A stretch of 28,825 bases of DNA, from IMG/VR virus record IMGVR_UViG_2698536355_000015, positions 1 to 28,825 of that record; one strand, 5' to 3'. A program made the position numbers and the translations under genes. Positions 1 through 10,627 of this stretch are shown piece after piece (within the stretch, counting starts at the first letter, position 1; every line of letters begins with the position of its first letter). The notes below the pieces were generated by a model. It was not told where the DNA came from and did no database searches. It saw only the letters and a list, made by a program, of their open reading frames with translations. This stretch comes from a virus (Duplodnaviria; Heunggongvirae; Uroviricota; Caudoviricetes).

Positions 1-240
1 ATGTTCGTCGAACTGGTTTACGACAAACGCAATGTGGCAGGGTTACCTGGGGCAAAGGATATCATCCTGAATGAGCTGACCAAGCGAGTGCATCATATCT
101 TCCCTGATGCAGAGGTGAGGGTTAAGCCGATGCAGGCGAACGCATTAAACAGCGACTGTACCAAAACAGAAAAGGAACGGTTAAACCGTATGCTGGAGGA
201 AATGTTCGAAGAATCTGATTTTTGGATGGTAGCCGAATAA
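1..240 (+). CDS. dinI: DinI-family protein (DNA-damage-inducible protein I-like)
   Basis: 79-aa product aligns along its length with E. coli DinI (81 aa), including the ...FPD... core and the acidic C-terminal ...E.DFWMVAE tail (DinI: ...ESADDWFVSE). ORF begins at window position 1, so promoter and any LexA box lie outside the window. Confidence 0.8.
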   Translation: MFVELVYDKRNVAGLPGAKDIILNELTKRVHHIFPDAEVRVKPMQANALNSDCTKTEKERLNRMLEEMFEESDFWMVAE

Positions 241-327
241 TAAGCTTTGTTTTTACATTGCTGTTTTATAGAATCCGCCGCCAGCCGGATATTTTCAATA
301 CTCGCACTATCGATTAAAACTGGCTGG

Positions 328-359
328 CCGCAGCCCCTCCTGTACACGGGGAGCTGCGG
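328..359. terminator. Putative bidirectional rho-independent terminator between convergent dinI-like and umuD'-like genes
   Basis: Inverted repeat CCGCAGC...GCTGCGG (about 7-bp stem) followed by TATTTTC on the plus strand and preceded by a T-run in minus-strand sense; lies directly after the stop of the minus-strand gene (365) and about 90 nt after dinI. Confidence 0.4.
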
Positions 360-364
360 TATTT

Positions 365-751
365 TCACATTACCGGGCAGTCATCAAATTCATCAGACCG
401 CGCATCGTTGATGATGTAGATCACCACACCAAAAACACCACTATCATCAAGTTCTGACAGGTCGTCACACTTCAACGGATCATCGAGTCTTTCCAGAACA
501 GTGCTCCGGGAAAATCGAATACGGCGCAGGGTAAACTCGCCTGCAATAGCACAGATCACGATTGAACCATCACAGGCTCTGACACCAGAGTCCACCACCA
601 GCAACGCATCTTTCATAATACCGGCACGCCAGTACGACTGGCCGGCACGCATGAAATACGTCGAAGACGGGCTTCTGATAAGCTGTTCGTCCAGTGAAAT
701 TCTTCGCTCAACATAGTCCTGCGCTGGCGACGGAAACGGCCCCATTACCAC
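365..751 (-). CDS. UmuD/UmuD'-like S24 peptidase-domain protein, N-terminally truncated at the position of the UmuD autocleavage site
   Basis: Product aligns with E. coli UmuD residues about 25-139 (GFPSPAADYVEQRI vs GPFPSPAQDYVERRI; DGEFTVKKL vs AGEFTLRRI; DVFGVVIHVV vs GVFGVVIYII). Ser60 equivalent is retained (GQSY), Lys97 equivalent is Arg. Track start is GTG at 749-751; an ATG lies two codons in (743-745). Confidence 0.75.
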   Translation of the reverse strand: MVMGPFPSPAQDYVERRISLDEQLIRSPSSTYFMRAGQSYWRAGIMKDALLVVDSGVRACDGSIVICAIAGEFTLRRIRFSRSTVLERLDDPLKCDDLSELDDSGVFGVVIYIINDARSDEFDDCPVM

Positions 752-829
752 ACCCTCCCCATCGCGCGGAGAATCCAGTATCTGTTCTCCGTCTGCTGGG
801 TTGTCTTGTCTGTAAAATCACCCTGATAT

Positions 830-1234
830 TTAGGAGCGAATTTCTTTGCGAAACAAGAGGAATCTTGATGACGCCAAGTTGACAACCATACCGGCTATAC
901 TTCCAGCTGCAACACCAATGATCGGATTTTCAAGGGCTATATTATATGTTGAGATTAGCCAACTATAGAGGCCGTAGTTGACTGAACCTCCACCTAACAT
1001 GAGAACAAAGTATGAGAGAAATTCGTTTTTAGGCTTCATGCATGAGCTTTTATCTTTGAAGGTTATCTTTCTATTAAAAACCCATGTAACGGCCACTGCT
1101 GCAAAAAAGGAAAAGGCTCGAGCTATGTAAGGCCCACAGTATCCAAGCAAAATATAAAGCACTGTGGTATCTACCAGAAAACCGATAGCCCCACTAATTC
1201 CGAAGAAAAAAATCTCTCTCATGATTTTTATCAT
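830..1234 (-). CDS. gtrA: GtrA-like small polytopic membrane protein (putative lipid-linked sugar flippase)
   Basis: About 120-134 aa with four predicted hydrophobic helices, the size and topology of the GtrA family; ATGA start/stop overlap with the upstream GT2 gene; low GC. An alternative start at Met5 is possible. Confidence 0.6.
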   Translation of the reverse strand: MIKIMREIFFFGISGAIGFLVDTTVLYILLGYCGPYIARAFSFFAAVAVTWVFNRKITFKDKSSCMKPKNEFLSYFVLMLGGGSVNYGLYSWLISTYNIALENPIIGVAAGSIAGMVVNLASSRFLLFRKEIRS

Positions 1235-2184
1235 TTATTTTTTCTCATACACGGAAGAGGAATCCCAAGATAGACCAGCCGCTTCATTTCATGCCGCCCC
1301 CTAGTCACATTGTCCAAGACTAAACCACAAACGAATGATAATGCCGCAGCAATCATGATGGAAGCCGCTAAAACTGCAGTTGGGAGTCGGGGAACCAGTC
1401 CATCACGAAGATATTCAGTTAATAGCGGGAACCCCAGTAATAATGACACCATCGCCATGCTCAAAGAACAAATCCCGAAGAAGGCAAATGGGCGTTCACT
1501 TATATATAGTCGACCAATCGTCTTTAGTATTCTCCAGCCATCTCGATATGTCGACAATTTACTGACAGACCCTTCCGGGCGTGCTCCGTAGGCTGTCATT
1601 ATTTCACCATAAGGCATGCGAAGCTCCAGAGCATGCACTGTCAGCTCAGTTTCAATTTCAAAGCCATTGGAAAGCGCAGGGAAAGATTTAGCATATCTAC
1701 GCGTGAAAGCCCGGTACCCTGAAAGCATATCGGTGAAATTCCCACCAAATATTTTAACAACACTTTGGGTAAGTATATAATTACCCCATTGATGTCCGCG
1801 CCTATACGCCTCACCAGCAATTTCCTCTTTCGTTTCTCGACAGCCAACAACCATATCAAGATGGTTATCAAGTAGTTTATCTACAAGACTTCTAACAGCA
1901 CTTGCATCATAAGTTGCATCCCCATCTACCATTACGTAGATATCAGCATCAACGTCGGCAAACATGCGGCGTACAACATTTCCCTTACCAGGAAGTTGCA
2001 CAGATACCACTTTAGCACCAGCATTGGTTGCAACAAGGGCGGTGCGATCCGTCGAATTATTATCAAAAACGTAGATATCAATCTCAGGCATAGCATCGCG
2101 AAATCCACTAACTACTGCTTCGATCGCTGCTTCTTCATTATAGCAAGGAACGATTAATGCCACATGTTGTTCACGATAATACAT
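1231..2184 (-). CDS. gtrB: GT2-family polyprenol-phosphate glycosyltransferase (GtrB/ArnC-like)
   Basis: N-terminal GT2 signature (ALIVPCYNEE...FDNNSTD...VDGDATY) followed by two C-terminal transmembrane helices, about 317 aa, the architecture of GtrB-type bactoprenol glucosyltransferases. Confidence 0.8.
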   Translation of the reverse strand: MYYREQHVALIVPCYNEEAAIEAVVSGFRDAMPEIDIYVFDNNSTDRTALVATNAGAKVVSVQLPGKGNVVRRMFADVDADIYVMVDGDATYDASAVRSLVDKLLDNHLDMVVGCRETKEEIAGEAYRRGHQWGNYILTQSVVKIFGGNFTDMLSGYRAFTRRYAKSFPALSNGFEIETELTVHALELRMPYGEIMTAYGARPEGSVSKLSTYRDGWRILKTIGRLYISERPFAFFGICSLSMAMVSLLLGFPLLTEYLRDGLVPRLPTAVLAASIMIAAALSFVCGLVLDNVTRGRHEMKRLVYLGIPLPCMRKNK

Positions 2185-2200
2185 ATCAACCTCATTTAAA

Positions 2201-3514
2201 TTATTCCTTTGTTTTTATTGACAGCAAAATAAATGGAACGCTTGCCGATGTTGCTAATATTGACCAATATGCGTATCTAAAATCAGATGCAACTCCGACA
2301 AATAGGTATGCCACAAGATACAGAAAACTTGACGTATTCAAGGCAAGAAAAACATCCCTGGCGAAACACTTACGGGATAACAGTCCATAAAGTGAAAATA
2401 TAAAAGAGGTCATAAGCCAGAACCCGGGATGAAAAACGAACGTATTTTTCAATAAGTTGGTCGTCGTTTCAAGCACTCTGAACAACCCAGTTTTTTCGTA
2501 TTTTAACCCTAATGAATTTTCTACAGTAGAATCACCCAATACTGAATTTGGATGCCACAACAATTTCATAAAGTTTTCATAACGATGATTCAGGTATGCA
2601 CCAGGTTCATGATATATAGCAAAAATCCATTTTTTCATTAATGATCCATCACCCCATGAACCAGAGTTTTGTATTTTTTTTAAAACAAAACTACAAGATC
2701 CCCAAACGTAAACATCCCATGCAGCCGCATCATAACAAGTTGAAAGCATCTTATGGCCTTCATCACTATCCCAAGTTTCCTCAAAATAGTCTTTACCTGA
2801 AAAATGAGAAATTCCCCCAAGATCAAAAACTATCAACGATTGATGAACTCGGGATTTTTCAGCATTTAAAAAACCGTAATTGAAGGTTGTTGTGAATAAA
2901 ATGGAGCATGCAGGAAAAAGAAAGAGAATAATCACCCATTTTTTCCATGACTGGAATTTACTTTTATTGAAAAGCAACCATACCAATGGTAACAAACCAA
3001 ACATCGCATTAAATCTTACCATACTTCCAATAAATAGCATGACACCAGCAAGAAGCAATATTTTCTTATTCTGCCCGTTATATTTTGAAATACTTAAGCA
3101 AATAAACCCTACAGCGCAAAGCCAAATAACCGCGTGAAGAACATCCTTCCAAATGTGGCTAAGCGTACCAACTGCAAACGGCATGAAGCCAACAACAATA
3201 ACTGATAACGAAATTTTTTTATATGTTTGCGGAATAGAAAGAGATATAAGTAATAAACCGCCCCAATACAGAAAACATTCAAGCAATAGCATTCCAAATG
3301 CCCCTGGCATCCAGTCATTCGTGATAGCCCAAATGAAACTCATAATCGGTGGATGCCAATCACTGAAATTAAAACTTGTCGCTTGCTGGTATTGATCTAA
3401 CGCATCACTAGTGATTAATCCAGGGAAAAAGGCTCGCAAAGTTATTAGCAACCCAAAAGTGGCTAAGGCAACTTGAGTAAATACTGCTTTTTTACCGAGT
3501 TTTGATGTTAGCAT
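2201..3514 (-). CDS. Polytopic membrane glycosyltransferase, GtrC-like / GT-C-fold candidate (serotype-specific transferase position)
   Basis: 437 aa with many hydrophobic helices in the N-terminal two-thirds and a more polar C-terminal region; sits immediately upstream of the GtrB-like and GtrA-like genes; very low GC. Family assignment rests on context and topology, not on a recognised motif. Confidence 0.5.
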   Translation of the reverse strand: MLTSKLGKKAVFTQVALATFGLLITLRAFFPGLITSDALDQYQQATSFNFSDWHPPIMSFIWAITNDWMPGAFGMLLLECFLYWGGLLLISLSIPQTYKKISLSVIVVGFMPFAVGTLSHIWKDVLHAVIWLCAVGFICLSISKYNGQNKKILLLAGVMLFIGSMVRFNAMFGLLPLVWLLFNKSKFQSWKKWVIILFLFPACSILFTTTFNYGFLNAEKSRVHQSLIVFDLGGISHFSGKDYFEETWDSDEGHKMLSTCYDAAAWDVYVWGSCSFVLKKIQNSGSWGDGSLMKKWIFAIYHEPGAYLNHRYENFMKLLWHPNSVLGDSTVENSLGLKYEKTGLFRVLETTTNLLKNTFVFHPGFWLMTSFIFSLYGLLSRKCFARDVFLALNTSSFLYLVAYLFVGVASDFRYAYWSILATSASVPFILLSIKTKE

Positions 3515-3690
3515 TGAATCATCTAATCTTGAGGAGTGTCATGGGGTTAATACTGTGAATTCTCCCACATGAGATATATTCAGGCAAGCATTTCGATCAG
3601 GGATTTCCTTACAGCAAGAAGCCATTGATGTGGGGATAGCGACGGCGGAGTGGAGAAATACCAAGTGCTGCTAATACGCGTTGATACCTC

Positions 3691-3709
3691 AAAAGCCGCG
3701 CGAAGCGGC
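3691..3709 (-). terminator. Rho-independent terminator downstream of tfa (end of late operon)
   Basis: Minus-strand sense GCCGC-TTCGC-GCGGC hairpin followed by TTTT, 6 nt after the tfa stop codon. Confidence 0.55.
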
Positions 3710-3715
3710 CCCTTG

Positions 3716-4129
3716 TTACGGTTGCGGAGGCCAGTTAACGTCCGGCGCGGTGCTGGTATTTGTAGCCGTCACCGCATCGATATAGTCCAGTGTGGCATTA
3801 ATCTGTTCCGTCTCAGACGTGGTGAGTTTGCGCCCCGCCTGGAGCTTCAACTGAACAACGCTGATTGACTGCATCGCCACATCAATCAGTGCCCGCCGCT
3901 GCAGTTCGGCCTGCGCTACGAGTTGCTCGTGCGACAGTTCCGGCACGGGGACGATAGTCACCATTCCATCATTATCAACAGTAAAGGTTTCGCCTGGCTG
4001 GCGGCTCATCGCTTTGCTGAACTCCTCAGCGGATACGTTGATTGCGCCCTCCGGGATTTGACGGTACTCCTCATTACTCGGGTAAAACAGACCGCCGGAA
4101 AACCAGTAAATAATATTATCCATACTCAT
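3716..4129 (-). CDS. tfa: Tail fibre assembly protein (Tfa)
   Basis: C-terminus ...TSTAPDVNWPPQP matches the conserved Tfa C-terminus (E. coli TfaE ...TSTAPDIEWPAVP); located directly after the tail fibre gene. Track ORF extends to 4177; the start chosen here is the internal Met (MSMDNII...) that avoids a 44-nt overlap. Confidence 0.8.
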   Translation of the reverse strand: MSMDNIIYWFSGGLFYPSNEEYRQIPEGAINVSAEEFSKAMSRQPGETFTVDNDGMVTIVPVPELSHEQLVAQAELQRRALIDVAMQSISVVQLKLQAGRKLTTSETEQINATLDYIDAVTATNTSTAPDVNWPPQP

Positions 4130-10225: not shown

Positions 10226-10627
10226 TTAAGGGTGAACTGAAAACCCGTCTGGCGATTTAGTAACGATCAGAGTCCTACCATCGGTAGTTTTTACTACTGC
10301 CAGATTCTCTGTAACATTCATCACTCCAGAAACATTTATACCATTATTTTCCAGATAATCATGAGTAACATTTATTGAGCCATAACATAAGTCATTATTA
10401 GTATAGAAGCCTTGGTATTCCTGCTTGCATTTATTTATCGACAAAAACTCATCCCTAAGAGAAAAAAACGCCATAACAAATGTGATAGCTAAAACAACTG
10501 AAATAACTCTGGCGATAGCTCTCCTTTTACTTTTCTCCTTCCTAAATGAAAGAAAAAGACAGATAAAGAATAAAATCAATAAAGCAATGCAACCTTGATA
10601 AATGCTCATAATCCACCAATCCACCAT
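10226..10627 (-). CDS. Small membrane protein of unknown function, AT-rich insertion in tail module (candidate superinfection-exclusion or host-interaction gene)
   Basis: ORF in a markedly AT-rich island between the tape measure and N-like genes; two N-terminal hydrophobic helices then a polar C-terminal domain of about 70 aa; followed by its own terminator. No recognisable homologue. Confidence 0.5.
   Translation of the reverse strand: MVDWWIMSIYQGCIALLILFFICLFLSFRKEKSKRRAIARVISVVLAITFVMAFFSLRDEFLSINKCKQEYQGFYTNNDLCYGSINVTHDYLENNGINVSGVMNVTENLAVVKTTDGRTLIVTKSPDGFSVHP

Follow-up and report, generated by a model that had tools for sequence, protein, structure and literature searches.

Does a prophage that carries at its edge, side by side, a gene for a RecA-filament protein and one for a ready-made UmuD' hold a module acting on the SOS response of its host, or simply two cargo genes? 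The question is raised by the first 829 nucleotides (nt) of a 28,825-nt stretch of a caudoviricete genome (IMG/VR record IMGVR_UViG_2698536355_000015, positions 1 to 28,825; this whole stretch is hereafter the window), where an initial annotation, made from the letters alone, saw a dinI-like gene convergent with a umuD'-like gene and proposed that, together, they could bias translesion synthesis or SOS signalling in the lysogen. The analysis presented here indicates that positions 1..829 are probably two genes of a widespread LexA-controlled cassette of prophage edges, in which the UmuD'-like gene, humD, was decapitated by the insertion of a gtr-like cluster. Most likely, they are two independent SOS-related cargo genes, dinI being damage-inducible and humD damage-independent or silent. 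The features that carry the argument are the following, in window positions:

1..240, + strand: dinI-like gene, 79 amino acids (aa), of the prophage 'MFVELVYDKRN...' DinI subfamily.
365..745, - strand: humD, 126 aa, with its ATG at 745 and its stop at 365-367, encoding a pre-truncated UmuD'-like protein of the HumD family.
745..829, - strand: 3' remnant of a phrog_3893 gene (last 27 codons and stop), which normally precedes humD and overlaps its start (TAATG).
830..3514, - strand: gtr-like cluster of low guanine-plus-cytosine (GC) content, made up of the next three genes.
830..1234, - strand: GtrA-like protein (Pfam GtrA_DPMS_TM).
1231..2184, - strand: GT2 polyprenyl-phosphate glycosyltransferase (Pfam Glycos_transf_2; best partial match AglJ).
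2201..3514, - strand: 437-aa polytopic membrane protein with no family match.

Regarding the identity of humD, the open reading frame (ORF), as first called at 365..751, matches Pfam Peptidase_S24 (the S24-peptidase fold), and its product belongs to the HumD family, with 164.7 bits against the NCBIfam HumD equivalog NF051876 (cutoff 120), and not to the autoproteolytic UmuD type (NF007621), for which it stays at 91.8 bits under a cutoff of 110. It is 54.6% identical over the full length to HumD of bacteriophage P1 and aligns with UmuD' (PDB 1UMU; E 2.5e-22) from UmuD residue Phe26 onwards. As judged by alignment with UmuD, 11 HumD proteins and 1UMU, the N-terminus (MGFPSP...) falls at UmuD Gly25/Phe26, without the N-terminal arm or the Cys/Ala-Gly cleavage site; since the protein starts at the UmuD' N-terminus, no cleavage is needed, just as had been proposed from the letters. 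At the other end, the family tail, tested as Y-I-I-N-D-A-R-x-x-E-F-D-D-C-P-V, is present as YIINDARSDEFDDCPVM, its columns being invariant or nearly so across the family. The start and the ...INDARSxEFDDCPV tail are shared with P1 HumD, N15 gp26, phiKO2 gp23, HK140 gp28 and HK639 gp28, and, like P1 HumD, the window protein is an orphan with no adjacent umuC. With UmuD and UmuD' of Escherichia coli (1UMU, 1I4V, 8GMT) it has in common a homologous catalytic/dimerisation domain, from which it departs by the absence of residues 1-24 and of the Cys24-Gly25 site and by an additional 11-residue C-terminal tail. At the UmuD Ser60 position, it has a Ser where 87% of the HumD family have a Thr, and at the position of Lys97, the general base, an Arg where 82% of the family keep the Lys; a dyad loss of this kind is expected in a protein with nothing to cleave.

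The positions initially given to the genes hold except for the start of humD, which is the ATG at 745 and not the GTG at 751. Gene callers also give 126 aa, a GGAGG Shine-Dalgarno motif lies 8 nt 5' of this ATG, and GTGTGGTAATGGGG contains the TAATG stop/start overlap with the small upstream gene that phage HK140 and the closest relatives also show; the exact 128-aa product of the GTG start has no database record. The sequence lying in frame 5' of humD (…NPADGEQILDSP…GVVMG), slightly reminiscent of a UmuD N-terminus, was considered as a vestigial arm and rejected, because in another frame the same DNA is the conserved phrog_3893 3' end with its TAATG junction; besides, this in-frame sequence shows no start codon past its stop.

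The initial annotation was right that no LexA box is visible in 752..829, and this extends to 400 nt upstream of humD with one mismatch allowed. What stands there instead is informative. The minus strand of 745..829 encodes ...YQGDFTDKTTQQTENRYWILRAMGRVW followed by a stop, which is the C-terminus of the 79-aa phrog_3893 family (phmmer E 6.3e-16 against the intact ORFs of metagenomic contig L090 and of HK140, gp27). This HK140 gp27-like family is annotated as of unknown function, and the protein has no significant Pfam domain. Intact copies were located as follows:

L090, 116..355: intact phrog_3893.
L089, 2862..3101: intact phrog_3893.
L005 (HK140), 2262..2501: intact phrog_3893.

In the two closest relatives, L090 (HumD 98% identical) and L089 (84%), phrog_3893 is intact directly 5' of humD, and the order runs from a LexA box (TACTGTATGTATAATCAGTA in L090, CTGTATATGTAAACAG in L089) through phrog_3893 and humD to hairpins, which are met from the other side by dinI with its own LexA box or boxes, LexA-like in L089. 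At the DNA level, the window follows L090 from ATATCAGGG (window 829) through humD and shows no similarity to it upstream. The junction at 829/830 coincides with the stop codon of the GtrA-like gene at 830-832, and the GC content across the gtr-like cluster is 0.37-0.43, against 0.55-0.60 in the phage body. From the low GC and the breakpoint at the gtrA stop, it follows that a horizontally acquired, gtr-like cluster for O-antigen modification overwrote the 5' part of the humD operon, replacing its LexA box, its promoter and the first ~52 codons of phrog_3893. The window humD lacks a LexA box because everything upstream of this point was replaced and, with this operator lost, dinI and humD are no longer co-regulated by LexA in this window. 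Of note, the gene order of the cluster (437-aa membrane protein, GT2, GtrA-like) is unusual, and the cluster has its own 170-nt upstream region, after a terminator-like hairpin 3' of the tail-fibre assembly gene.

How exceptional this loss is can be appreciated from a species-representative set (one genome per species, 44 HumD-type loci) and from the best 80 HumD loci of IMG/VR, whose viral contigs are redundant, so that counts among them are not independent events. A LexA-like box lies within 400 nt upstream at 43/43 assessable species-representative loci and at 76 of the 80 viral-contig loci, for a background rate of 0.17 such boxes per kb per strand. The window humD is therefore exceptional in its family, and the missing box characterises the locus rather than the protein; P1 humD too has an upstream LexA box. 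The most instructive comparison is HK140, in which dinI (gp26) and the operon made of gp27 and the umuD-like gp28 diverge from a LexA box, ahead of attP, and are annotated as DinI, hypothetical and UmuD-like, respectively. The window shares with it the three gene families, the slot between tail fibre genes and attachment site, and the TAATG overlap. It differs in that dinI is convergent with a box of its own, whereas in HK140 it is divergent and shares the operator of the gp27-humD operon, and in that most of the gp27 homologue and the humD operator are deleted. Directly 5' of humD, and usually with the TAATG overlap, phrog_3893 is found at 16 of the 44 species-representative loci and at 29 of the 80 viral ones; it also stands beside dinI without a detectable HumD in some DinI loci (L245, L247, L251).

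The dinI-like gene has retained what humD lost. Its identity, as initially proposed, is borne out by Pfam DinI PF06183 (E 9.2e-22, 77.6 bits for a cutoff of 24.2, profile positions 3-63 of 63), by PHROG 189, 'RecA filament binding protein DinI', and by the solved structure of E. coli DinI (PDB 1GHH; E 1.1e-8). Against the NCBIfam model of chromosomal DinI (NF007893), it reaches 43.9 bits for an equivalog cutoff of 111, which makes it a prophage paralogue rather than the chromosomal orthologue. Its 'MFVELVYDKRN...' subfamily is found across many prophages, including HK140, whose annotation likens the protein to MsgA. The promoter had been expected to lie outside the window, and it does: inspection of the DNA 5' of position 1, in the E. 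coli contig L001 (9943-9962), revealed the LexA box TACTGTATAAATAAACAGTA, 39-58 nt 5' of the dinI ATG. An SOS box was taken to be CTGT-N8-ACAG (consensus TACTG(TA)5CAGTA) in a promoter region, and TACTGTATAAATAAACAGTA has this core with no mismatch, together with consensus flanks; as a positive control, the scan recovered the expected recN boxes in the same L001 locus. In most carrier contigs, a group II intron lies on the opposite strand between ssrA and dinI:

L002, 7825..10000; L003, 1..1945; L004, 1..82: group II intron (Rfam RF02005, 186.6 bits), encoding a 494-aa RVT_1 protein.

Its boundary is 1 nt from ACTGTATAAATAAACAGTA, so that the LexA core is retained and the DNA 5' of the core is replaced; L001 has no intron.

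Given this operator, dinI would be induced after DNA damage. E. coli DinI binds deep inside the groove of RecA's activated filament, which it stabilises, and LexA, UmuD and lambda CI use the same features of this groove (PMC9926225). Its contacts to RecA are L13, L21, W71, W77, F78, E24, E69 and D76 (PMC9926225), at which positions the window DinI has L, I, F, W, M, E, E and F in the 1GHH alignment; seven of the eight thus appear retained or conservatively substituted, D76 being replaced by Phe. The two proteins have in common the Pfam family, a similar length (79 vs 81 aa), an acidic C-terminal helix and LexA control (1GHH; RecA-DinI complex 7YWA), and they differ by the Phe at D76, by the 'MFVELVYDKRN' subfamily and by orthology. 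As judged from the conserved contacts, the phage DinI would bind the filament groove as its E. coli counterpart does; there it would make the filament more stable and vie with other substrates that use the groove, for example host UmuD and repressors of the CI type. A prophage-borne dinI homologue with a LexA box is also known from the dinI-antirepressor operons of Gifsy-1/2/3 in Salmonella (PMC3121763); the window gene has neither an antirepressor nor irsA downstream, and lies at the prophage edge, not downstream of replication genes.

Between the two genes, the initial annotation recognised a shared hairpin. A GC-rich hairpin does lie between the convergent genes, but the spacer holds two to three stem-loops and not a single one:

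241..364: dinI/humD spacer, 124 nt.
273..290, + strand: small stem-loop followed by ATTTTCAATA (T-run), candidate dinI terminator from a consensus terminator scan.
~328..359, both strands: GC-rich hairpin CCGCAGCCCC...GGGGAGCTGCGG, candidate bidirectional terminator from minimum-energy folds.

The main hairpin, the strongest, lies at a distance of six bases from the end of humD; on the + strand it is directly followed by TATTTTC (UAUUUUC in the transcript), while the - strand tail is CCAGCCAGTTTTAATC, in which the U-run comes 8 nt from the hairpin unless a shorter alternative stem forms. A long-range stem further pairs 280..288 with 320..328, and the spacer folds better than shuffled sequence (z -3.6 on the + strand, -2.5 on the - strand). 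L089, the 84%-identical relative, has the same main-hairpin stem with a different loop. The convergent layout and its stem-loops probably do no more than terminate two independent transcription units. No Rfam family was found in window 1-4000 at E <= 0.1.

The surroundings confirm that this is a prophage edge, as had been supposed. In E. coli contigs carrying the identical region, dinI starts past the end of ssrA (tmRNA), at 267 nt in L001, and the pair adjoins smpB and ssrA in L001 and L002, the chromosomal flank matching E. coli at 100% identity. An identical DinI protein was found in 78 collection blocks, and the four contigs listed share the dinI-humD-gtrA layout. Megablast of window 1-1300 gave no match, neither among 5,426 complete E. 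coli genomes nor among 50,697 phage records; the prophage, with a Mu-like baseplate and a contractile tail, has structural genes that match only Citrobacter phage phiNP, at 75%. In this rare E. coli prophage, integrated at ssrA, dinI and humD are the cargo lying furthest out. This placement is common: humD is the last provirus gene, ending <=10 nt from the predicted provirus end, in 28/80 viral contigs (L092-L171), and in HK140 (L005 2860..3006) a putative attP overlaps its 3' end, from which humD is typically the last gene before the attachment site. Further inside the window, a 133-aa ORF of the tail module (10226..10627, - strand) shows a GC dip (0.41 vs ~0.57) and weak membrane-transporter-like Pfam matches, and may be a cargo gene inserted between tail genes.

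Are dinI and humD neighbours more often than cargo genes would be? With DinI counted within 1.6 kb, a DinI neighbour was found at 13 of the 44 species-representative HumD loci, compared with a single one of 26 full-length umuD loci (Fisher p = 0.012). At 11 of these 13, dinI diverges from humD directly upstream of it, and the ~75-nt spacer that they share holds one or two LexA boxes; at the other two, from Atlantibacter (L011) and Enterobacter (L081), it is convergent and 1.1-1.2 kb downstream. Among the 80 viral loci, 50 have a divergent dinI and 20 have both dinI and phrog_3893. Wherever DinI matches occur in the +/-4 kb flanks, they adjoin humD, the two exceptions being L134 and L156. Some divergent cassettes combine a DinI that shares ~90% identity with the window protein and a HumD that shares only ~56% with its window counterpart, which indicates that the pairing has been reassembled more than once. 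Seen from the other gene, of the 80 IMG/VR DinIs closest to that of the window, 14 lie next to a clear HumD, and no fewer than 37 with adequate flank have no humD beside them; likewise, 31 of the 44 species-representative HumD loci have no dinI, and humD is solo in P1 and HK639. The linkage is real but facultative, and occurs in more than one orientation. The survey called for by the initial annotation thus shows a recurrent but not an obligatory pair, whose tight, convergent, hairpin-sharing layout was seen only in the window lineage (L089, L090), the divergent layout being common. One outcome that this annotation had named as fatal, genes unlinked in related genomes with a umuD-like gene that is consistently a pseudogene, is not what emerged, linkage being above chance and humD intact under apparent constraint.

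Two of the surveyed loci deserve mention for their own sake. In Klebsiella pneumoniae ATCC 13883 (L053, 3416..4342), a full-length umuD, complete with arm and Cys-Gly site, stands next to a divergent upstream dinI-like gene, with two separate LexA boxes ~200 nt apart, so that dinI-umuD adjacency is not confined to the truncated HumD. In Enterobacter sp. TMH.L2 (L081, 4469..5823, - strand), the convergent dinI is followed by three same-strand ORFs (78, 146 and 107 aa) and then by humD, which could be a dinI-led operon with cargo of unassigned function, reminiscent of the Gifsy dinI-antirepressor layout. A full-text search of the accessible literature found no description of the dinI-humD cassette as a unit; the cassette is nonetheless common and visible in the HK140 annotation, and both window genes are new members of known families (HumD and DinI-like).

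The same survey is what gives weight to the proposal that dinI and humD form a co-selected SOS-modulating module, in which DinI would block the processing of host UmuD, and perhaps tune repressor cleavage, while HumD would bypass the block, the prophage thereby setting the timing of translesion synthesis and mutagenesis during induction. The recurrence of the linkage in two orientations, the near-constant contact of flanking DinI matches with humD, the repeated reassembly of the pair and the RecA groove shared by DinI and UmuD (PMC9926225) all speak in its favour, and the recurrent linkage could indeed reflect a true functional coupling. Yet both genes are also found without each other and are typical independent cargo of the tail fibre/att slot, the loss of LexA control over humD makes a coordinated SOS expression impossible here, and induction reporters did not respond significantly when dinI was deleted non-polarly from Gifsy prophages (PMC3121763), so that for the window this proposal is possible while on the unlikely side. 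An extension of it, which we regard as unlikely, would make of dinI, phrog_3893 and humD a phage translesion-synthesis switch with phrog_3893 as third component and the window as a 'rewired' allele: DinI would hold RecA* and block host UmuD maturation and possibly repressor cleavage, HumD would act as a cleavage-independent UmuD', and expression of the window copy would go along with the O-antigen modification genes rather than with the SOS response. Very improbable is a further view, in which dinI, as a member of an antirepressor operon under LexA control (Gifsy or 186-Tum type), would directly trigger prophage induction: Tum of phage 186 has a DinI-like half (PMC3121763) and the window dinI has its LexA box, but stem-loops and the convergent humD come directly after it, the only + strand downstream ORFs (31 and 54 aa, TTG starts) run through the hairpins, and the prophage immunity region is outside the window. 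A Gifsy-like antirepressor downstream of dinI was considered and rejected, no ORF being conserved, since the L089 spacer differs from that of the window by substitutions and indels.

Whether humD is still a gene at all is the other matter to weigh, for it could have become promoterless with the gtr-like insertion and be a silent, decaying remnant on its way to a pseudogene. Operator, promoter and the upstream gene to which humD was translationally coupled are all lost, which points in this direction, as does a simple scan that shows no sigma-70-like promoter on the - strand of 1..1300, and C-terminal humD fragments exist in L083-L088. In Salmonella phage BTP1 (L007 2100..2900), gtrC-gtrA is followed by an unannotated HumD homologue in two pieces and then by int, a parallel to the window in which a humD beside an O-antigen-modification module has already decayed. 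The window protein itself deviates from its family at 12 of the 62 columns that are >=90% conserved, with an extra Pro3 and a 4-residue deletion besides the Arg at Lys97. Against decay, the ORF is intact, the humD of L001 equals that of the window at the DNA level, the ORF is identical in several independent E. coli assemblies, the ribosome-binding site is retained, no terminator-like site lies on the - strand between gtrA and humD, and the ratio of nonsynonymous to synonymous substitution rates (dN/dS) is 0.09-0.11 relative to L090 and L089. In addition, an Atlantibacter branch (P0004) whose operon is intact has the same 12-deviation profile, typical HumD members having 0-4, which argues for a divergent sub-branch of the family rather than for obvious decay. 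A silent remnant is on balance possible while on the unlikely side. With no terminator after gtrA and no promoter in view, read-through from the gtr-like operon is the only visible route of expression.

Several of these points bear against the probable explanation as well, that of a prophage-edge cassette with a decapitated humD. The signal of purifying selection is mostly older than the truncation, and only 11 substitutions separate the window from L090, so that selection since the truncation cannot be judged. The activity of the window HumD is not assured, given its deviations at conserved positions, and the proposed read-through is deduced solely from the absence of a predicted terminator. 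On the side of dinI, the group II intron that abuts the LexA box in L002-L004 may alter the promoter. The decapitated cassette nevertheless accounts for the locus as follows. The LexA-controlled dinI would respond to damage; humD, translated from its own retained ribosome-binding site, would be expressed only by read-through from the gtr-like operon, and thus whether or not DNA is damaged. P1 HumD is annotated in the P1 genome as complementing UmuD' and is reported to replace UmuD' in SOS mutagenesis (PMC7092418, citing McLenigan et al. 1999), a replacement known for P1 HumD only; by analogy, the window protein would pair with host UmuC into a Pol V-like translesion polymerase. Any such polymerase activity, and any mutagenic output, would in that case hinge on host umuC and its LexA control rather than on humD itself.

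Both proteins belong to characterised families of the RecA/SOS axis, and the genes are ordinary prophage cargo. Beyond the window, a LexA box accompanies nearly every HumD gene of Enterobacteriaceae; many of these genes share an operator with a prophage DinI partner, and many follow the unstudied phrog_3893. The present E. coli prophage is a naturally rewired case, in which humD has been disconnected from DNA damage. Should the pairing have no function, the locus would be just an example of the overwriting of cargo slots at the ends of prophages. Should it have one, temperate phages would control when their host becomes mutagenic, with consequences for stress-induced mutagenesis and for how antibiotic resistance evolves in lysogens.

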